DNA of 64,000 bases from Nanobdellota archaeon (GTDB taxonomy: Archaea > Nanobdellota > Nanobdellia > Woesearchaeales > JAHIVG01): assembly GCA_018816705.1 (NCBI GenBank), contig JAHIVG010000079.1, positions 8,064-72,063 of the forward strand. Direction: 5' to 3'. Below, in pieces: positions 15,765 through 63,977 of this stretch. Within the stretch, counting starts at the first letter, position 1; each line of letters opens with the position of its first letter. The translations under genes were made by a program, and so were the position numbers. The notes under the pieces were generated by a model. That model was not told the DNA's origin, made no database searches, and saw nothing but the letters and a program-made list of their open reading frames with translations.

Positions 15765-15810
15765 TCAATACCAAATCTTTAAAAACTCTCAGAATTCTCT
15801 TATGGCTATT

Positions 15811-16006
15811 GCGGGGGTAGCGAAGTGGTCAAAACCTGTATAGGTGACCAGACGCGCTGGACTCAAGACGAGTGCTGAGCTGGGAAGAAAACCTTCCTGG
15901 CGATGACTTGCGTGATATCCAGTCCCTTAGTGGGTTCAGGGGTTCGACTCTTGGCGCCCGGAGCGGCAAGGCTCCGAACGTCAGTGAGAAAGTCCCTTCC
16001 CCCGCA
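15811..16006 (+). tRNA. tRNA-Leu(CAA), apparently interrupted by three introns (D-arm, anticodon loop 37/38, T-loop)
   Basis: Manual fold:
- The acceptor GCGGGGG (15811-15817) pairs with CCCCCGC (15999-16005), followed by discriminator A.
- D arm GCG-AAGTGGTCAAAA-[18 nt insert 15835-15852]-CGC.
- Anticodon stem CTGGA/TCCAG around loop CTCAAGA (anticodon CAA at 15864-15866), with a ~48 nt insert.
- Long variable arm CCC-TTAGT-GGG.
- T stem AGGGG/CCCTT around loop TTCGACT, with a ~44 nt insert.
- A TATA-like tttaaaaa lies ~30 nt upstream. Confidence 0.5.
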
Positions 16007-19003: not shown

Positions 19004-19093
19004 GAATTACCACTGAATAGGGGTATTTAAAGCTTTCGGTATGATTGGCTCTGTCCTGAGTGTCAATTTGCCTTCCTCGCTTGCAGGCAGATT

Positions 19094-19179
19094 CTCTTTT
19101 CCCGCCCTGCCACGCAAAGTGAGCAAAGCTCACTTGCGCCCAAGACTCCGTCTTTGGGGGGCGAGGCGGGAAAAGAGAG
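19094..19179. repeat. Hairpin repeat element, family X, copy A
   Basis: The outer stem ctcttttcccgcc / ggcgggaaaagag encloses the inner hairpin aAGTGAGC-aaa-GCTCACTt, followed by conserved caagactccgtctt. It is closely similar to 56804-56890. Confidence 0.6.
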
Positions 19180-19253
19180 CAAGCAACATTCAGCGCGACC
19201 GAGTCGCCAGACTTAGGACAGAGCCGGTTGTATATATAAACGCTTATCTGCCG

Positions 19254-19373
19254 GCCGCGTAGAAATCCTGGTTCTTTTTGATCCTCGCGAAAGTCAACAT
19301 GGTCACGCTCATATAAAAATCAGTCGCGTAACCGGATCAAAAAGAATCTCATTCTATCGGATTTCTACGCGGC
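19254..19373. repeat. Inverted-repeat element, family Y, copy A
   Basis: A perfect 15-bp terminal inverted repeat GCCGCGTAGAAATCC / GGATTTCTACGCGGC. An inner inverted repeat TGGTTCTTTTTGATCC / GGATCAAAAAGAA. A related copy lies at 47966-48096. Confidence 0.6.
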
Positions 19374-20765
19374 CTATCTGCCCAGAAGGGTATCCCTCTT
19401 CTGATAGCAGGCATCGACGAAGGATGCTAGCTTGGGCATCATCTGCGGCTCGGGAGCGTCTGAGAATGCCAGGTCAACATACGGCAGTATCTTGTCAGCA
19501 GCTGAGCCAGCCCTCTCGCGTGCGTTCCTAATCAATGCTTGAGATACAGACGTGGCAACAGTCTCATGCATGCACTGCCAGGGCCCGACATGGCATATGC
19601 CGCTGATTGCGGCATCGCCCACAGGCCGGAAATGGCCCTCGATGAAGAGGTAAGTCGTGCCGACAGTGATCGGAGACTCACCCTCAATGGCGGTGTGGAA
19701 TATGCCTCGGTCCTCGGCTTTCTTCGAATAGTCGTAAGCGTCATGTATCTCCCTGCCCCTGAGAAGATCCTCGAAAGGCATCCAGAGAATGTCCTTCTGC
19801 TTGTTCATGTACCATCTATTGATACCCTTCTTGAAAACATCAATCAGCGAGGACGGATGCCTAAGGCTCATGGCCTGCTTCGCATCCTGGTAGTTCCAGC
19901 TGTTGACATAAAGGAACCATTCGGCTGTGGATGCGACAAGTGTCTCCAAAGGCCTGCTGAAAGAGCCCTCCAACAGCTTAGAGATATAGTGGTTGGCTCC
20001 CGGATGGAGCCTCATGAAGAATTCGCCGTTCACAAGAGCTATCGGGAACCGTCGGGAGCGGTCAAAGTCCACCTTTGACATCTCGGCAGCAGCAGTGTAC
20101 ATCGCGTCCTCAAGGCCGTGGCCGCCAGACCTGATCTCATCGCACAGATGACCGAGAAGCTCCTTGTACTTGAGCTCTCCGGCCGTGTTCCCGACTTCAG
20201 GCTTTTTCTCGTAAGGCCTGATCCTCAGCAGGGCATTATATAATATGTCCAGGGCGAAGATGCTCTTGAAAGCCAGCTTGACAAGATCGTCTCTCTGATC
20301 AGGAGGCAGGTCCAACTCAGAATAGTTGGTCTTGCCAGAAGGGCTGACAATAGGCACCCCCTCATACCCGTTGCTGTCGAGGATGAGCCTCATAACCTGT
20401 GTGTACTGCCCCTGCCTGCACGGACCCTCGGCAGTGGGCTGGAACAAGGCAAGCTCGTCCTGGCCATGCTTCTCTGATTTCTTCTCCAGCCAGGCCAGGG
20501 CATCACCTATCAGGATGCGGAAGGGCTCGCAGGTCTGGGTTATGACATTCTTCTCCGCAAGCCCGTAAGTGTGCTCGGTGCAGGTCTCTTCCATGACCTC
20601 AGCAGGGATGCCGACACCTTGCAAAGCGGCTGCAAGGCCGTAAGAGCTGTCACCTGAGTAAGGTATGCCCCACGTGCGCTCGTTGAGGTTGTCAGGCATA
20701 GGCCTTGAAGTGTCATACTTCTTATCGAGCCGCGCCTGCAAGCCGGATGAGTCTTCGGGTTTCAT
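19374..20765 (-). CDS. 2-hydroxyacyl-CoA dehydratase-like (HgdB/DUF2229-type) protein, partner of the upstream ATPase fusion
   Basis: 463 aa. It overlaps the upstream gene by 4 nt. In clostridial 'CoA-substrate-specific enzyme activase' proteins this domain is fused to the ATPase modules. Confidence 0.65.
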   Translation of the reverse strand: MKPEDSSGLQARLDKKYDTSRPMPDNLNERTWGIPYSGDSSYGLAAALQGVGIPAEVMEETCTEHTYGLAEKNVITQTCEPFRILIGDALAWLEKKSEKHGQDELALFQPTAEGPCRQGQYTQVMRLILDSNGYEGVPIVSPSGKTNYSELDLPPDQRDDLVKLAFKSIFALDILYNALLRIRPYEKKPEVGNTAGELKYKELLGHLCDEIRSGGHGLEDAMYTAAAEMSKVDFDRSRRFPIALVNGEFFMRLHPGANHYISKLLEGSFSRPLETLVASTAEWFLYVNSWNYQDAKQAMSLRHPSSLIDVFKKGINRWYMNKQKDILWMPFEDLLRGREIHDAYDYSKKAEDRGIFHTAIEGESPITVGTTYLFIEGHFRPVGDAAISGICHVGPWQCMHETVATSVSQALIRNARERAGSAADKILPYVDLAFSDAPEPQMMPKLASFVDACYQKRDTLLGR

Positions 20766-30464: not shown

Positions 30465-30633
30465 GGCAACAACAATACTGGCAGCGCGACGGTCAAATGC
30501 GACGCATTTGCTCTACTCGTCAGACCGGAACCCAGAACTTCGTAACTGGCACAGTCACTACCTACGGTCGTTCGGCGGTCAAATAAGAGATTTAACAACC
30601 CGGTCTGCCTCGCCGCGCGCCATTGTTGTTGCC
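30465..30633. ncRNA. Candidate structured RNA / conserved hairpin element, family Z, copy 1
   Basis: Closing stem ggcaacaacaat (30465-30476) / attgttgttgcc (30622-30633). Nested hairpins caaatgcg-a-cgcatttg and cagaccgg...ccggtctg. A second copy with compensatory changes lies at 60613-60716 on the opposite strand. The transcribed strand is unknown. Confidence 0.4.
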
Positions 30634-32508: not shown

Positions 32509-32758
32509 ATAAGAGATAAGTAAAAAAGAAGCAAGAAGGTGACTGTTTCTAACGTTTATAAATGAAGCTTGCGATGATTTATTAACAGAGTGAGCTGGGG
32601 CAGAATGGCATAACAAAGCGGACTCTCCAGTTCGGTTGCGAGAAAAACCGGTATTTAGTTGTCAAACCTGGCACATGTCACCTAAGACATATCCCAAGCC
32701 ACGCTCCGCCAAGACACGAGCCTCATATACGATTAATCGTATTCAGGGGGTTCCATAA

Positions 32759-32962
32759 CTAATGGGCTAAGGCTTTTTCACGTAATTTTTTTAACTTTGA
32801 AATCGGCACCTCAATGAAGAAAGACCCGGAATGGCCGCACCTGTTGCACACATATGTTTGTGGCAAAATGCCTATCTGTTGCAGCGCGTCCCTGTCCTGA
32901 GACACATCAGGTGACTTACACTTTGGACAAACCCTGACATATTTTTCTTTCTTCCCAAACAT
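32759..32962 (-). CDS. Small zinc-ribbon protein
   Basis: 67 aa with CPKC...CNRC. Confidence 0.4.
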   Translation of the reverse strand: MFGKKEKYVRVCPKCKSPDVSQDRDALQQIGILPQTYVCNRCGHSGSFFIEVPISKLKKLREKALAH

Positions 32963-34362: not shown

Positions 34363-35433
34363 ATGGCACTGTTCAAGGATATTCTCGGCGCGGAAGAGAC
34401 ACTGTTCAAGAATCCTGTCGCGTTGGATCCGGACTTCATGCCCAAAGAGATACCCTATAGGGAGAACGAGCAGCACTATATCGCAGACTGCATCAAACCG
34501 CTGTTCAAGAAGAGGAACGGCCGCAACCTCATCGTCACAGGCGCGCCAGGCATAGGCAAGACAGCAGCGTGCAAGCACATCCTGCAGGACCTGGAAAAGG
34601 AGACAGACGAGATATACACTATCTACGTCAACTGCTGGAACAAGAACACCACGTACAAGATAATACTAGAACTCTGCGAGGCCTTAGGCTACAGGTTCAC
34701 ACAGAACAAGAAGACAGAGGAGCTCTTCGGGATAGTCAAGGGCATGCTGAACAAGAAGAGTGCAGTGCTGGTCTTCGACGAGATAGACAAGATGGAAGAG
34801 TTCGACTTCCTATACACATTCGTCGAGGAGATATACAGGAAGACCGTGGTGATGATCACCAACTACAAGGAATGGATCACTGATCTTGACCAGAGGATAA
34901 AGTCAAGGCTGATCCCCGACACGCTGGAGTTCAAACCGTACAAGCCAGGAGAGATAAGAGGCATACTCGAACAGAGGATGAAGGCAGCATTCTTCGACGG
35001 GATCTGGCAGGGAGAGGCATTTGACATCGTCGTCGAGAAGACGGCAGAGACGGGCGACGTCAGGACAGGACTGTTCCTGATGCGGGAGGCCGGAAGCGCA
35101 GCCGAGGAAGAGAGCAAGCGCAGCATAACAATCGAGCATGTCAAGAAGGCAACGTCGAGGATGCAGGGCTTCAGCATAAAGAAGGACTCTGAGCTGGAGG
35201 AGAGCACAAAGGAGATACTCGAGCTAGTCAAGAGCAACCCTGACATGCGCATCGGCGAGCTCTTCAAGAGATACCAGAAGGACGGAGGGGCCCTTACGTA
35301 CAAGAGCTTCCAGAGAAGGATACAGAAGCTGGCAGAGAACAAGTTCATATCGGTCAAGAAGCTCATGGGCGGCAAGGACGGCACGACCACGATCGTGAAG
35401 CCCTTCGAGCACAAGAAGCTGACGGAGTTCTAA
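34363..35433 (+). CDS. orc1: Orc1/Cdc6 replication initiator
   Basis: AAA+ fold with Walker A GAPGIGKTA, Walker B VLVFDEIDKM and a C-terminal winged helix. Confidence 0.92.
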   Translation: MALFKDILGAEETLFKNPVALDPDFMPKEIPYRENEQHYIADCIKPLFKKRNGRNLIVTGAPGIGKTAACKHILQDLEKETDEIYTIYVNCWNKNTTYKIILELCEALGYRFTQNKKTEELFGIVKGMLNKKSAVLVFDEIDKMEEFDFLYTFVEEIYRKTVVMITNYKEWITDLDQRIKSRLIPDTLEFKPYKPGEIRGILEQRMKAAFFDGIWQGEAFDIVVEKTAETGDVRTGLFLMREAGSAAEEESKRSITIEHVKKATSRMQGFSIKKDSELEESTKEILELVKSNPDMRIGELFKRYQKDGGALTYKSFQRRIQKLAENKFISVKKLMGGKDGTTTIVKPFEHKKLTEF

Positions 35434-46497: not shown

Positions 46498-47193
46498 TTA
46501 AGGCTCCATCAGGCCGTAAATCACCAGCAGGAACCGGTCAGCAGCCCTTACCAGGTCCCATTCGTCGCCCTCGATTATAGCGCACTGGTCCTCGACAGTC
46601 ACACTGGGCTTGTCAGCGGTGCGCACATAGAAGACAGAGCCGTTGAGGTCACAGGAGCCTATTGCAACGCCTTCGCATGCAGGGTCGATGTCGCTGGTGC
46701 AGGCAGGCTTAGGCGCGATGAGGAAGACCTGGGCCAAAGTCACGCCTATCTCGGTAGAAGCGAGGGTGATGAAGCCCATCTTGGGGTCGTCAGGGTCGAA
46801 GGTGAAATAAAAATCTTCTGACTCACCGAAGGTGTTGTTTCTCCTTATCATCGGGACATCAATGACCTCCCTCGGGCCGTAGTGGAGCGGGATGCTGAAC
46901 AAGTTCTCCCCTTTCTTGATGGTCACGAACCAGGTGTTGCCGACGTTGACGAAGCTGTTGCCGTTCCATATATAGCCCTGTTCCTCGTCCAACTCACCCT
47001 GATAGTTCAGCTGGTGCAGCTCATCTAGGGTGAGGGGCCTTTCATCGTCCTTCGTCAACGAGAACAGCAAGAAGACAGACACGAAGACCGCCAAGACGAT
47101 CACGATGGAGATGGCGAGGTGTTTCCAGCTCCTTTTTTCTTGTAGCTTCTCTCTCTCTTCCAGTCCCTTTTCCTCAGGCTCCTCATTCTCCAT
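46498..47193 (-). CDS. Membrane-anchored hypothetical protein, paralog A
   Basis: Single N-terminal TM. The C-terminal domain is paralogous to 47183-47764 (VTVEDQCAIIEG / VTIDDDCIAISG). Confidence 0.45.
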   Translation of the reverse strand: MENEEPEEKGLEEREKLQEKRSWKHLAISIVIVLAVFVSVFLLFSLTKDDERPLTLDELHQLNYQGELDEEQGYIWNGNSFVNVGNTWFVTIKKGENLFSIPLHYGPREVIDVPMIRRNNTFGESEDFYFTFDPDDPKMGFITLASTEIGVTLAQVFLIAPKPACTSDIDPACEGVAIGSCDLNGSVFYVRTADKPSVTVEDQCAIIEGDEWDLVRAADRFLLVIYGLMEP

Positions 47194-47764
47194 CGAGGAT
47201 ACCTGCCAGGCTGTACATCAGCCTATCCTTTGCGAGAAGGAGGCCATCTTCAGAACCTGAGATGGCGATGCAGTCATCGTCGATGGTGACAGAACTCTCA
47301 TTGGAAGGCAGGAGCATGATGACAGGCACATATTCGGTGGCGTTGAGGCAGCTGATCACAGGAAGGTCATACCTATCGTCCTCCAGGGCGATCCCGGAAG
47401 CTACGAAGACTGAGAACAGCTCTGGCATCTCCTGGCTTAGCTCGAAGCGCACCAGGTCAAACACGGGATCCTCAGAAGGCTCGAAAGACACCAGGATCAT
47501 CCTTGAGCCAAATATCTTATCCTTGGCAGCAGTGTCAAAGGTGACGTTCTCAGCCAGCTCAGGGGTATGGTAGAACCTGAACTGCTTACCATCTATGCTG
47601 GTGTAAAATGCATCTTCCCTGGCAGTGAACTTGTATTTCCCATACTTGAAGTCCGAGCCCTCATCAGGAGCGAGGAACCCTGCCAGGCTAGTGACCATTA
47701 TGAACACCATGAACAGGGTCATATACAGGGCCATCCTTGATGATTTCTTGGTTTTCTTGACCAT
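47183..47764 (-). CDS. Membrane-anchored hypothetical protein, paralog B
   Basis: Single N-terminal TM; related to the neighbour; 11-nt overlap. Confidence 0.45.
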   Translation of the reverse strand: MVKKTKKSSRMALYMTLFMVFIMVTSLAGFLAPDEGSDFKYGKYKFTAREDAFYTSIDGKQFRFYHTPELAENVTFDTAAKDKIFGSRMILVSFEPSEDPVFDLVRFELSQEMPELFSVFVASGIALEDDRYDLPVISCLNATEYVPVIMLLPSNESSVTIDDDCIAISGSEDGLLLAKDRLMYSLAGILDGE

Positions 47765-47965
47765 ATCAACCAGGGGAGGTGAAGGGTTTATATATTTTTC
47801 TTCGGTAGTCTAGGTTCAAGAGCCTCGGCCCGCACAATACTCTTCAAGTGTATATGGCCCCTTTTACTGTCCTCCCGAGCCCCCACCCCCATACAGTCCG
47901 CCTCTGAGGCCGACAAGTTGAGGCAGTCGTGTCGAGCCTTCATCACTTGGCCGGCAAGAAAAACC

Positions 47966-48096
47966 GGCTTAGTAGAAAGTCTGGTTCTTTTTGATCCTTT
48001 ACCATAAGAACAGATAGTTATCTGTCTAATCTAACATAGACCTTAGTAATGGAAAGGATCAAAAAGAAATTTCCATTATCGACTTTTTACTAAGCC
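47966..48096. repeat. Inverted-repeat element, family Y, copy B
   Basis: ggcttagtagaaagtc-tggttctttttgatcc ... ggatcaaaaagaa-atttccattatc-gactttttactaagcc. The ~58-nt spacer contains the palindrome CAGATAgtTATCTG. Confidence 0.55.
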
Positions 48097-48121
48097 TGAA
48101 AAACCGAAACATACTCATTTC

Positions 48122-48227
48122 ATCCGTAGCTTCGATTTCTTGAAGAAATCGAAACATTTAAACAGCGAAAACCTGCGGTTTTTGGGTTTAAATGTCCCGA
48201 AAATGGAACATTTTCGAAACATTTAAA
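48122..48227. promoter_or_regulatory. Operator-like palindromes and direct repeats upstream of the wHTH regulator/ABC operon
   Basis: A perfect 21-bp palindrome TCGATTTCTTGAAGAAATCGA (48122-48142). The palindrome CGAAAATGgaaCATTTTCG (48198-48216). The direct repeat TCGAAACATTTAAA, twice. Confidence 0.45.
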
Positions 48228-53611: not shown

Positions 53612-53776
53612 CTATTTTCTTCCGACGCTGCTCAGCATGTAGACACCGAACAGCATAAGGACCACGCTCCACATGTTGATTCTGAAGAACTCCCAATAGC
53701 CGAGGTCTTTCAGAATGTAGAACAGCCCGAATATTAGTACTATGATTCCGAACCAAACCGGAGACTTACAACCCAT
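53612..53776 (-). CDS. Small two-TM membrane protein (54 aa), tentative
   Basis: Minus-strand ATG about 53776; MGCKSPVWFGIIVLIFGLFYIL...MLSSVGRK. Below the ORF-track length cutoff. Confidence 0.25.
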   Translation of the reverse strand: MGCKSPVWFGIIVLIFGLFYILKDLGYWEFFRINMWSVVLMLFGVYMLSSVGRK

Positions 53777-53972
53777 TTTTTCACCCCATTGAATTTATGG
53801 AGCATTGGAGAGTGATAATGTATATAAATCTTTTGTTTTCGGGCGGTTAAGAAAGCCAGGGATTCTCCCAGTATTTTGACTTAACCCCCATCTTTCTGCT
53901 ATTGCGCTGCCCCCACCCTGTAGAAGGTTGCCTTAGTAGAAATTTGTGCAGAGGCAATAGGGCTGAAGCCAA

Positions 53973-56247: not shown

Positions 56248-56619
56248 ATGAAGAAAGGGTTCATCAGGACACTCGAAGCCTTCATAGCAGGAGGCATAAG
56301 CTTCATGGTGCTGTTCTACATAATCCAGGCCAACACCCCGGCAGAGACAAGGAGGGATATTACACCCATCCTCGGGAACATGTTGCATGACGACGGCTTC
56401 AGGCTGTGCGCAGCCAACGAGAACACGACCTGCATATCTGAGCTCATCTCCCCGCTGATGGGGCCGGCAAGGGACCACATCATCAACATCACTTCCGATG
56501 CATCCCAAGCGCCGGCAGGGCTGCCCGACAAGCGGGTGGATGTGGAGACCCTGTACATATCAGGCAACGGCACGTCCTACGACCCTAAGATAGTCCGGCT
56601 GTACAGCTGGGTGAGATGA
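56248..56619 (+). CDS. Type IV pilin-like protein with a class III signal peptide
   Basis: MKKG|FIRTLEAFIAGGISFMVLFYII: a KG|F cleavage-like site with Glu at about +6, followed by a hydrophobic helix. Confidence 0.45.
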   Translation: MKKGFIRTLEAFIAGGISFMVLFYIIQANTPAETRRDITPILGNMLHDDGFRLCAANENTTCISELISPLMGPARDHIINITSDASQAPAGLPDKRVDVETLYISGNGTSYDPKIVRLYSWVR

Positions 56620-56803
56620 ACCGGTCGCTTATCATTTCTATTATACATGTCCCCTCGTTGACCATCCAGACCCCCACTCTCTAAAACTGGTACTTTGGCC
56701 CCGTTTCGCTTCACCACCACTTCCCCCACCCCCATGTAAGTTGCCTTAGAAATTTAATCCAAACAATATCCTTTTTCGTTCCTTTACAGGTCGCTGCCCT
56801 CAC

Positions 56804-56890
56804 TCTTTTTTCCCCGCCTCGGCACACAGAGTGAGCGAAGCTCACTTGTGCGCAAGACTCCGTCTTAGCGCGCGGGGCGGAGGAAAAAAG
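56804..56890. repeat. Hairpin repeat element, family X, copy B
   Basis: ctcttttttccccgcc...AGTGAGC-gaa-GCTCACTtgtgcgcaagactccgtctt...ggcggaggaaaaaag. It shows compensatory differences from copy A. Confidence 0.6.
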
Positions 56891-56984
56891 ACCCGACATC
56901 AGTTGGGCGCGACCTGGAGGAGGCTATTTCATCAGAGTCCGCTGGAGCAAAAGATATTTAAACACACGAATCTGATGAGGTGGC

Positions 56985-60345: not shown

Positions 60346-60436
60346 GGCAGCAACCGAGAATTGAACTCGGTCCTGGAGCTCACTGCAGCAACATGCCGCC
60401 ACAGGCTCCCATGCTAACCATTACACCATTGCCGCC
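60346..60436 (-). tRNA. tRNA-His(GTG) with an anticodon-loop intron and an encoded G-1
   Basis: Minus-strand fold:
- G-1, then acceptor GCGGCAA / TTGCTGC with one G-U pair.
- Anticodon stem GGAGC/GCTCC around loop CTGTGG|A (anticodon GTG), with an ~18-nt insert.
- T arm CCGAG-TTCAATT-CTCGG, and discriminator C.
- A TATA-like ctttataag lies ~30 nt upstream. Confidence 0.6.
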
Positions 60437-60612
60437 ACAAGGGAAAGTATTGGCTTTCTGCTTATAAAGGTTACCAAAACAGAAGTAAGAAAATTGTTAT
60501 AATACTGAAAATCCAGCCACCCATGGCACGGACGGCCTCTTCCTGCGGAAGAGTCCTATTCGGCTTCGGCTACGCCTTGCCTCATCCGGCCTTGGCTGGA
60601 TTTTCGGAACTC

Positions 60613-60716
60613 GGTAACAACATTGGCGCGCGGCGAGGCGGGGGATGCCCATCCGGGGTGCCGAGTAGGACAAATTGGTACAATTTGGCCGTCGCGCTGC
60701 CAGTAATGTTGTTACC
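60613..60716. ncRNA. Candidate structured RNA / conserved hairpin element, family Z, copy 2 (opposite orientation)
   Basis: Closing stem ggtaacaacatt / aatgttgttacc. Inner hairpin caaattg-ta-caatttg. The conserved cctcgccgcgcgcc block is present. Confidence 0.4.
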
Positions 60717-61963: not shown

Positions 61964-62411
61964 CGAGTATCGACTCCACATGTGTGAGGAATTCCTTAAG
62001 CATGGTGTAATACCCATGGATGAGGTCTATGTCCACCTTGACGATCTGGCCGTCATCAAGGGTGGCGGTCATGGTCACATGCCGCCTGAACTCGTTGCTC
62101 CTGGTGTAGGTGGACTTGCTCAGCTTCCTCAGCAGGATATAAAGGTCAAGGTGCTTGAACATCTCAAGATCGTCCTTGAAGGAATTCTTGAGCAGCTCGC
62201 AGCGCAGCATGGGGGCGGGAGGAATCTCGAATATCTTGCCCTGTTCCTTCAGCTTCTGGAGGAAGCCCTCGATGAGGTGGTCATAGAAAGATATCATGCG
62301 GCCGAATATGTTGGGGAAGATGTCCACAGTGCGTGAATATTTCAAGGTAACGTAGATCAAGTGGTCGATCCGCTTGAAGTCCTCTTTTGCATCATCTAAA
62401 TATTCGCTCAT
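61956..62411 (-). CDS. Hypothetical protein, paralog 1 of the pair upstream of the MinD-like gene
   Basis: 151 aa; the shared N-terminal motif is DFKRIDHLIYVTLKYS. Confidence 0.4.
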   Translation of the reverse strand: MSEYLDDAKEDFKRIDHLIYVTLKYSRTVDIFPNIFGRMISFYDHLIEGFLQKLKEQGKIFEIPPAPMLRCELLKNSFKDDLEMFKHLDLYILLRKLSKSTYTRSNEFRRHVTMTATLDDGQIVKVDIDLIHGYYTMLKEFLTHVESILDD

Positions 62412-62970
62412 GCTTGCCTACAATATGTTTCATTTCGCCTATAAATAGCTTTGCTTTGGAGAGGTGGTCCTTCAGCTGGTCCTTGGAGATCGAACTCAGC
62501 CTGTAGTTGTCAGAGCATATCACGAACTTGTCCTTCCGCGTGAATTCCATAGGCGAGGTCTTATGCATCTCCACAACATCATTTATCTTCCTTATGAGCT
62601 GGATGTACTCCGGGGTTATGTCGTAACGCCTCGTCGCCCTGGCCTCGAATAGCTCGAGCTGGGAGCCGAAGTCCTGCGGATAGGCCGGTATGCGCTTGAA
62701 AATGAGCTCATGGCTGAGTATGGACATGACTGCCAATTTCAGCCCTTTGTGTATGTTCAGCAAGACCGACAAAAGTATCTTGGTGTCCTGGACCAAGGGG
62801 TAAGTCACGGTCAGCATGTGGTCTGCGATAAAGAGTGCTTTCTCTGCTTCATCACGGTATCTCTGGAAGTCCTCCATCCCGGAGGCATTAAGGAATCGAG
62901 GTTTATAAAGTTTTGGCCGATTTCGGGCGGGTGAAGTCAATTTGCTACATGTCCCCCACACCCTGTCCAC
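62392..62970 (-). CDS. Hypothetical protein, paralog 2
   Basis: 192 aa; motif DFQRY...DHMLTVTYPLV. It overlaps the next gene. Confidence 0.4.
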   Translation of the reverse strand: MDRVWGTCSKLTSPARNRPKLYKPRFLNASGMEDFQRYRDEAEKALFIADHMLTVTYPLVQDTKILLSVLLNIHKGLKLAVMSILSHELIFKRIPAYPQDFGSQLELFEARATRRYDITPEYIQLIRKINDVVEMHKTSPMEFTRKDKFVICSDNYRLSSISKDQLKDHLSKAKLFIGEMKHIVGKHERIFR

Positions 62971-63150
62971 CCAATCCCCCGCCCTCCCTCAAGTAGTCTG
63001 CCTTTGAAGCTTGCATGTTGAGGCGCTAGTTTTCCCCCTTCAGCTTCCTCCCAAGGCCCACCCACCTCCATGCTTATTGCTTTGGAGGATGTCTTGAGGC
63101 AATAGCAGAACAAGCGGTCTAAGTCAAGATAATTTATACCTATGTAAGAA

Positions 63151-63695: not shown

Positions 63696-63977
63696 TGTGG
63701 GGAGTGCATAAGCCATCTTCTGTATTCTGCAACATTCGACTAAGCGCTTAAAGCTTGCACCGGCCAGGGCTCGCCGTTTCACCGCCATCTGGGGAACGTC
63801 TGCTGCGCAGCCCAGTCGCCTAGGTGTGCTGGAGCGTCATCCTTGGCCCAGAAGCGTTCGTTTCTGTGCGGTTGCCTCCCCTTTCGAGGACCCGTAGGGT
63901 GGCCTTTCGCGGTGGATGGACTTTCCTCAGCTACCAGGCTTCTCAGCCCGGTTACCGGCAGTTGCATGCACCCCCAC
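63696..63977 (-). ncRNA. rnpB: RNase P RNA
   Basis: The minus strand carries: P1 GTGGGGGTGC...GCACtCCCCAC; P4 5' strand GAGGAAAGTCC; ACAGAAA; GGCGGTGAAACGGCG (the CR-IV-like GGTGAAA); and ACAGAAGATGGCTTAT (the CR-V-like ...GGCUUA). A TATA TTTAAATA lies ~25 nt upstream. Confidence 0.75.

Follow-up and report, generated by a model that had tools for sequence, protein, structure and literature searches.

We analysed a 64-kb window (the whole stretch of DNA presented above) from a contig of a Nanobdellota archaeon, in which four C-rich intergenic elements, here called E1 to E4, form one family of related, non-coding sequences that we tentatively read as sibling small RNAs. An archaeal RNase P RNA at 63700-63975 on the - strand marks the window as archaeal, and the best homologues of its proteins outside their own genome are from Woesearchaeota/Nanoarchaeota. 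Since these next-best homologues reach merely 59-65% identity, the searched collections contain no close relative of this organism. The coding fraction of the contig is 91% and the intergenic fraction is 9%. The housekeeping genes in the window include those for MCM, TBP, pyrimidine synthesis, SerRS, SecDF, RtcB/archease and the pair Sec61beta-NAC.

The four elements are collinear, 130-190 nt in length, and contain five units of 50-60 nt, which are the only ones in the window and are all on the + strand, whichever way the flanking genes point. Each unit consists of a C-run (CCCCCACCC-like), about 10 nt of spacer, the motif YYGCYTY, a loop of 12-18 nt and the motif GAGGCRA, hence a hairpin of 5-7 bp. 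From left to right, an element is composed of a left motif, a head, further C-runs, a unit A and a unit B. The left motif TTTCGGGCGG is identical in E2 and E4, and the head TAYATGKCCCC occurs in E1, E3 and E4. Units are thus duplicated inside elements: both are clear in E4 (L4a and L4b), E1 and E3 are two-part, and E2 has a single unit. The conserved blocks are the C-run and the stem, while the remainder has drifted to about 50-65% identity with insertions and deletions, the mean column identity among the elements being 51%.

Precisely, E1 (47823-47964, +) starts with CCTCGGCCCGC at 47823-47833, followed by the head TATATGGCCCC at 47851-47861 and by unit L1a at 47871-47933, with its C-run at 47880-47892 and its stem formed by GCCTC (47900-47904) and GAGGC (47920-47924). 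Its 3′ flank is broken by Y2, a copy of the mobile hairpin element described below, which is inserted at GAAAAAC (47958-47964). E2 (53837-53965, +) is the shortest copy; it has TTTCGGGCGG at 53837-53846, a C-run CCCCCAT at 53885 and unit L2 at 53903-53964 (C-run 53910-53918; stem TTGCCT 53928-53933 and AGGCAA 53952-53957), and it terminates in GAGGCAATAG. E3 (56620-56775, +) begins at the stop codon of the + strand gene 56248-56619, with the motif ACCGGTCGC at 56620-56628, the head TACATGTCCCC at 56644-56654, a C-run at 56671 and unit L3 at 56715-56771 (C-run 56723-56735; stem TTGCCT 56741-56746, whose partner at 56761-56766 is degenerate), directly after whose hairpin there is a T5 run on the same strand (56772-56776). 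The longest copy, E4 (62921-63110, +), has TTTCGGGCGG at 62921-62930, the head TACATGTCCCC at 62946-62956, unit L4a at 62972-63033 (stem GCCTT 63000-63004 and GAGGC 63020-63024) and unit L4b at 63050-63108, with the C-run CCCACCCACCTCC at 63057-63069 and a stem formed by ATTGCTT (63076-63082) and GAGGCAAT (63096-63103).

An earlier note on this DNA had reported C-rich blocks at four loci: all four are present, although the coordinates quoted were 2-8 nt off. We found CCCCCACCCCCAT exactly at 47880 and 56723, CCCCCACCCT at 53910 and CCCCCACACCC at 62953, and the string tacatgtcccc, said to be common to the loci at 56644 and 62944, was confirmed, the exact matches of TACATGTCCCC lying at 56644 and 62946. 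For CCCCCACCCC, allowing at most one mismatch, there were 14 matches versus 4.7 expected, a number reached in none of 100 shuffles. The window holds 18 C-rich 12-mers, seven of which are intergenic, and six of these seven fall in the four loci. The sequence GCCTTAGTAGAAA is exact at 53930 only, and its four matches with at most two mismatches were equalled in 1 of 100 shuffles.

The relationship between the units was evaluated by leave-one-out nhmmer searches in a 128-kb search space, a design which avoids the circularity of a model searching its own training targets. Each time the omitted unit was the best non-training match (E = 0.021, 1.3e-4, 0.012, 6.4e-4 and 3.5e-4), and background matches had E ≥ 0.04. 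The fifth unit, L4b, was added by us; it was found by multiple alignment, which places it with loci 2 and 3, and was then validated by the leave-one-out search at E = 3.5e-4. Local alignments of whole elements on the same strand gave z = 4.4, 6.6, 4.5, 3.1 and 4.6 for five of the six pairs and only 0.5 for the pair E1-E2. In 128 control comparisons of an element with other intergenic DNA the mean z was 0.15 and the maximum 3.6, so that four of the six pairs score above every control, and reverse-strand alignments of the elements were mostly unremarkable. On account of the leave-one-out recovery and of these alignment scores relative to the controls, we consider the family as real: the four loci are related beyond chance and, as previously proposed, they belong to one repeat family.

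The + strand of the elements is C-rich and G-poor, with the exception of E2, which has no C/G skew; no other 150-nt stretch of the window is as C-skewed as E3 (11% G, skew -0.57, more than 4 standard deviations out). The elements fold no better than their shuffles (z from -0.8 to +1.4) and the C-runs lie outside the predicted helices. The short hairpin is the sole recurrent pairing, with 82.5% of its cells paired on the + strand versus 30-58% in slid controls, and seven hairpin cells are G.U on the + strand and A.C mismatches on the other one, where about 65% of cells are paired. No open reading frame (ORF) of at least 35 aa covers the elements on the + strand, the ORFs over them on the - strand (41-109 aa) share no peptide similarity with one another, and the ATGGGGGTGGGG 'MGVG' starts are missing from L2 and L4a. 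E1-E4 are therefore considered as non-coding.

To place the elements among related genomes we used the NAC/161-aa locus, the only one covered by the comparison of orthologous spacers. The order Sec61beta-NAC-161-aa gene is conserved in relatives, and the spacer between NAC and the 161-aa gene, in which E4 lies, is 273 nt long here versus 68 nt in the closest relative (65% amino acid identity). The C-rich units are also missing from this spacer in the other relatives, and the promoter of the 161-aa gene, CCAAA(A)C(G)TTTATA, is kept in all these relatives, although they lack E4. Given the difference in spacer length and the missing units, E4 is considered as a lineage-specific gain of about 200 nt, and the whole family, judging from sequence comparison, is lineage-specific. 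In about 80 kb of related contigs there are no intergenic C- or G-runs at all. The radical-SAM relatives (61-62% identity) are not syntenic, and the gene next to E1 (193 aa) is an ORFan. The elements had no Rfam match either at the gathering threshold or at E ≤ 5, nor any match in collections of viral, phage and plasmid sequences, and another 5.4 kb of the contig contained no C-rich unit. Fragments derived from tRNAs or rRNAs, C/D-box and H/ACA guides and dif sites were rejected on the basis of the anatomy of the elements.

The promoter derived from the window itself (about 17 genes) consists of an A-rich transcription factor B recognition element (BRE) plus TTTAWATA ending 20-24 nt before the ATG, with examples upstream of 5185, 25490(-), 29188(-), 30685, 34363, 44128(-), 53973(-), 57333, 59182 and 63486(-). 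Since the TATA box ends so close to the start codon, most mRNAs would be leaderless, and gene expression in this organism looks predominantly so. Shine-Dalgarno-like GGTG/GGAGG motifs mainly precede operon-internal genes. Three of the elements lie just right of a promoter suited to a - strand gene (the genes starting at 47764, 53776 and 62877). E1 is 27 nt from the BRE/TATA at 47787-47796 (-) of the leaderless gene 47183-47764, the TTTCGGGCGG of E2 is 8 nt from the TATA box at 53821-53828 (-) of the 54-aa gene 53612-53776, and E4 is 11 nt from the TATA box at 62902-62909 (-) of the leaderless 161-aa gene 62392-62877. The boxes near E1, E2 and E4 are thus shared with - strand genes, and those at E1 and E2 score alike in the + and - orientations. 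E3, by contrast, comes after a + strand gene, with no - strand gene nearby that it could serve. A fixed position of the motif relative to transcription starts, for which the earlier note had proposed a check, is thus not what we observed.

The C-rich units are 50-150 nt away from the promoters and present in just four of about 30 intergenic gaps. A genome-wide promoter role for the C-rich motif was rejected on these grounds and because the BRE/TATA consensus is distinct from it; an oligo-T, intrinsic-like terminator was rejected too, a T-run directly following the hairpin in E3 only. The motif is thus not the consensus promoter or terminator of this genome, the outcome that had been named as fatal to the idea of a separate family.

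The window also contains hairpin elements of other kinds. The Y elements (Y1 at 19253-19375, Y2 at 47965-48097) are hairpins of about 123-133 nt with terminal inverted repeats of about 16 bp, five compensatory stem pairs and folding z of -8.7 and -8.9. By scanning metagenome contigs (Ga0180007) with the inner stem of Y, we found copies 91-99% identical, with unrelated flanks, on four contigs, and a diverged copy adjoining an X-like element; the copies are at L121 2316-2438(-), L122 2278-2400, L125 518-640, L126 2790-2912 and L123 1360-1492. Since the terminal inverted repeats are bounded by a 7-bp direct duplication of the target site in all seven copies (6 of 7 positions in one), Y is a mobile miniature inverted-repeat transposable element (MITE), separate from the C-rich family. 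Six of the seven copies lie 5-8 bp upstream of an A-rich BRE plus TATA box, which suggests promoter-proximal targeting or tolerance. Y2 is flanked by the duplication GAAAAAC (47958-47964 and 48098-48104).

The X elements are at 30465-30633 (+) and 60613-60716 (-); another copy, 86% identical, was found on a related metagenome contig (L123 106-207). The 5′ and 3′ ends of X pair (GGYAACAACAWT...AWTGTTGTTRCC; z = -4.1 for the short copy), X had no Rfam match and bears no relation to the C-rich units; it may be a gene for a structured RNA or a further mobile element. A third hairpin element, D6 (19093-19178 and 56803-56892, about 86-90 nt, copies 84% identical), has a predicted fold in which a long closing stem encloses two internal hairpins (z -8.4 and -7.5), and it had no Rfam match. 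One D6 copy follows E3 at a distance of 28 nt, and the other precedes Y1 by 75 nt. In the orthologous contig L122, part of the first copy's outer stem is kept.

The earlier note had tied X, Y and the C-rich blocks into one super-family, since part of the motif seemed to reappear as the left arm of Y. As Y2 is inserted in the 3′ flank of E1, however, GGCTTAGTAGAAA (GCTTAGTAGAAA) at 47966 is MITE sequence, namely the terminal inverted repeat of Y2, and its likeness to the GCCTTAGTAGAAA of E2 is an 11-mer coincidence (CTTAGTAGAAA, blastn E = 0.5 in the intergenic set). In fact, neither the hidden Markov model nor the covariance model of the unit had any match on X or Y, the X, Y and D6 elements fold with z from -4 to -9 whereas the C-rich elements do not depart from their shuffles, and the copies of X and Y on other contigs have no C-rich unit nearby. 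The C-rich family had thus been correctly recognized but mis-joined to unrelated hairpin elements, and it occupies four intergenic regions instead of the "at least six" proposed.

As for the function of the family, our preferred but tentative reading is that E1-E4 are sibling small RNAs with exposed C-rich, anti-Shine-Dalgarno-like motifs. They would be four old, diverged paralogues of one non-coding element of 130-190 nt gained in this lineage, in which selection would have kept several exposed C-runs and the short hairpin. The genes would be read from left to right on the + strand, E3 being a module derived from a 3′ untranslated region, and the RNA would be G-poor and mostly unfolded, with two to six single-stranded C-rich motifs (CCCCCACCCCC; CACCUCC in L4b) and the YYGCYUY/GAGGCRA hairpin at its 3′ end. 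That the C-runs would be unpaired follows from the elements folding no better than shuffles. Among the readings considered, this one is our best guess to account jointly for the conserved blocks, the pairing on the + strand, the common orientation, the duplication of units and the survival of the copies; since the contig is 91% coding, useless inserts of 150 nt should be lost. A start on the + strand 22-24 nt past the TATA box would fall just after TTTCGGGCGG in E2 and E4, and 6 nt before the left motif in E1.

The C-runs (CACCCCC; CACCTCC in L4b) resemble the anti-Shine-Dalgarno core of 16S rRNA, and in the minority of genes that are not leaderless they may pair with the G-rich ribosome-binding sites (GGGGUGA, GAGGUGG), by which translation would be damped. 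At the DNA level, the ribosome-binding sites of the genes led by a Shine-Dalgarno sequence read GGGGTGA, GAGGTGG and AGGTGGTGAT. We found that 5 of 68 start regions pair with the C-run at -12 kcal/mol or better, and that three of these five, which are best paired to the CCCCCACCCCCAU seed (53776, 56248 and 63489), belong to genes flanking E2, E3 and E4; the overlap has a hypergeometric probability of about 0.01, calculated post hoc, and may be a coincidence. The more specific proposal, in which the CACC(C/U)CC motifs mimic the 16S anti-Shine-Dalgarno and titrate or mask the ribosome-binding sites of such genes, including the neighbours, as an archaeal counterpart of RsaE/RoxS, is in our opinion improbable.

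The Rsa small RNAs of Firmicutes (UCCC motif, e.g. RsaE/RoxS) are C-rich regulatory RNAs with multiple seeds (Geissmann et al. 2009, PMC2790875). E1-E4 are similar to RsaE/RoxS in being intergenic and 100-200 nt long, with multiple C-rich motifs left unpaired ahead of a terminal hairpin, and in forming a multi-copy "sibling" family; the duplication of units inside an element matches the multi-seed layout, and the motifs may likewise be complementary to G-rich Shine-Dalgarno sequences. They differ in that the host is an archaeon with mostly leaderless mRNAs and there is no sequence or Rfam match; moreover, the C-runs are longer here (9-13 nt), the RNA would be almost unstructured, and any promoter, terminator or transcript of E1-E4 is putative.

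Several observations weigh against the small-RNA reading. Transcription of the elements and its direction, like the pairing mechanism, are deduced from sequence features; the weak points of the proposal are that an independent promoter and terminator are not demonstrable and that relatives conserve nothing of the elements. At E4 the promoter matrix gives the TATA box 16.1 in the - orientation and less than 6 in the opposite one, and upstream of E3 there is no TATA box. As regards the T-runs, the T5 of E1 lies in the MITE, the T7 of E2 in Lys codons of the convergent gene, and E4 has none; the support for termination on the + strand was weakened by the recognition of Y2 as an insertion. Covariation in the hairpin was no better than in shuffles (n = 5 sequences). 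Start regions are no richer in complements of the C-run than windows inside coding sequence (p = 0.39), and the majority of genes are leaderless. Finally, the family was seen on one contig of the genome, with no copy in the first 47 kb of the window and no C-rich unit in about 80 kb of related contigs. We consider a family of C-rich small RNAs as the best reading of function, unproven as it is.

The alternative that survives best, only slightly less probable in our view than the small-RNA reading, is that E1-E4 are a decayed, non-functional dispersed repeat, i.e. what remains of an old mobile or duplicative element that was non-autonomous and inserted at the only permissive sites of a compact genome, upstream of promoters or after stop codons, whose C-run and hairpin reflect former needs of a transposition machinery. 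It would suit the finding that E4 is an insertion relative to relatives (spacer 68 vs 273 nt) beside a conserved promoter, that the neighbour of E1 is an ORFan, and that E1, E2 and E4 occupy sites similar to those where the active MITE Y lands (5-8 bp upstream of BRE/TATA in 6 of 7 copies). The copies are also co-oriented, within 15 kb and on one side of the Orc1/Cdc6-like ATPase gene (34363-35433), as strand-biased or local transposition predicts. The elements have no terminal inverted repeats, however: we found no inverted repeat of at least 7 nt between the ends of E2, E3 or E4 and only a T-rich 8-mer in E1. Direct repeats of 7 nt flank E3 (GGTCGCT) and E4 (AAGTCAA), and of 6 nt E1 and E2, but in search windows of 40-75 nt they are at chance level (about 0.15 7-mers expected per element) and the ends they imply are non-homologous. 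Four old relics, about 50-65% identical to one another versus 91-99% for Y, are unexpected in a genome with 91% coding sequence, no transposase or integrase was detected among about 60 window proteins scanned against Pfam, and the viral, phage and plasmid collections gave no match.

Like the Y MITE, E1-E4 are short, non-coding, dispersed, lineage-specific and located just upstream of promoters, whereas the 16-bp terminal inverted repeats, very stable hairpin and 91-99% identical copies of Y are missing from them, and nothing in them convincingly matches its exact 7-bp duplications. Palindrome-associated elements derived from IS200/IS605, with their omega-RNA relics, are on record for archaea (PMC12558985). 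Features in common with E1-E4 are the lack of terminal inverted repeats and of convincing target duplications, a subterminal hairpin and a strand-biased orientation. E1-E4 differ in that a hairpin was found at one end only and that the window has no TnpA or TnpB; omega RNAs are highly structured, which E1-E4 are not. Integron attC sites (hairpins of 57-141 nt with RYYYAAC/GTTRRRY cores) were also considered and rejected: the hairpin here is of about 25-30 nt, the window has no integrase, and between the elements there are 3-11 housekeeping genes, pointing either way (RtcB, archease, tRNA, ABC transporter), instead of cassettes.

A regulatory role in cis, which we consider unlikely, would make a control region for the adjacent - strand genes out of the G-rich strand, which is found 50-150 bp ahead of three leaderless promoters and would act as the site of a dimeric factor (inverted repeat GCCTY-N12-18-RAGGC) and/or as a G-quadruplex/i-motif tract. 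In fact, E1, E2 and E4 lie directly upstream of the BRE/TATA of a - strand gene in the same relative orientation, E2 and E4 have in common CCGCCCGAAA, 8-11 nt upstream of the TATA box on the - strand, and at E1, E3 and E4 the absolute G4Hunter scores, 2.0-2.1, rank in the top six of the window, E4 having GGGAGGGCGGGGGATTGGG. Against this, E3 has no - strand gene to control, the genes downstream are not related to one another (an ORFan, one for a 54-aa membrane peptide and one for a 161-aa family protein), relatives use the same 161-aa promoter without the element and have no intergenic G- or C-runs, E2 lacks C/G skew, and 130-190 nt far exceeds the needs of a factor site. The G-quadruplex/i-motif tracts of the eukaryotic c-MYC nuclease hypersensitive element (NHE) III likewise place a G-rich sense strand upstream of a TATA promoter; here E3 is not upstream of a promoter, and quadruplex or i-motif formation is predicted only. 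E4 has four tracts of at least three G with short loops, and E1, E2 and E3 would need loops of 12-20 nt.

On the - strand, the unit also resembles an archaeal origin recognition box (ORB), which is a dyad plus a "G-string", being a dyad followed 7-14 nt on by GGGGGTGGGGG. Unlike those of an ORB, the dyad arms are 12-18 nt apart and all copies are co-oriented, spread over 15 kb and 13-29 kb away from Orc1/Cdc6, with no AT-rich unwinding element between them. As ORBs are clustered, often inverted, around an AT-rich region by orc1/cdc6, this candidate was rejected.

That the elements act as a transcription stop or insulator between neighbouring transcription units is very improbable. E2 and E4 do lie between the end of a - strand gene and the next promoter, and E3 between two + strand units, with its hairpin followed by T5. 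The passing transcript, however, would read the G-rich sense at E2 and E4 and the C-rich one at E3, the - strand side of every element is without a T5 run, and E1 lies between divergent genes, where there is nothing to stop. Archaeal transcription termination relies on oligo-U tracts. An equally remote explanation, already disfavoured by the data, is a chance likeness of unrelated low-complexity C-rich tracts: the units are short, their alignment is gapped, E1 and E2 have no direct similarity (z 0.5), and the degenerate three-block pattern, which fits four of the five units, was drawn up post hoc and gives more than 117 chance matches in high-GC bacteria among the matches listed, but all five units were recovered by leave-one-out, including the alignment-derived L4b (E = 3.5e-4), four of six element pairs beat all 128 controls, and the similarity is strand-specific, with left motif, head, unit A and unit B in collinear order.

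Other features of the window were observed in passing. An intron-containing tRNA at 60346-60435 (-) scored 47.6 bits with Rfam in E-value mode and was missed by ARAGORN and by the Rfam gathering-mode filters; between it and the X copy at 60613-60716 there is a paired stretch of about 100 nt at 60507-60605 (GAAAATCCAGCC ... GGCTGGATTTTC). A second tRNA-like gene, at about 15810-16005 (+), has acceptor ends GCGGGGG...CCCCCGC and long inserts, which are probably several introns, and was detected by neither tool. A gene-free gap of 452 nt (32509-32960) lies upstream of the genes for SerRS and the Orc1/Cdc6-like ATPase. Its features are a good TATA box at 32555 and, at 32727-32750, a 16-bp palindrome with GGGGG after it; it has no ORF, Rfam match or internal repeats. 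Two of its 11-mers are shared with E1 and D6, yet it does not align significantly with any element. An undescribed RNA gene or an origin-related sequence may lie here. Directly upstream of a MarR-like regulator gene (48267), which heads an ABC/FtsX transporter operon, there are palindromes at 48131-48153 (TTCGATTTCTTSAAGAAATCGAA) and 48187-48227 (41 nt) plus a repeated TCGAAACATTTAAA; the palindromes are probably operators of that gene.

The practical value of the family is modest, as it is small, on one contig and without close relatives for comparison. Its interest lies in the host, an uncultured DPANN archaeon: DPANN archaea have tiny, tightly packed genomes, and almost nothing is known on their non-coding RNAs or on how repeats behave in them. 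If transcribed, E1-E4 would be a first candidate family of seed-type regulatory RNAs in DPANN, in a host with mostly leaderless mRNAs. If they are relics, E1-E4 and the mobile Y would show that streamlined genomes gather insertions in the few bases upstream of promoters.

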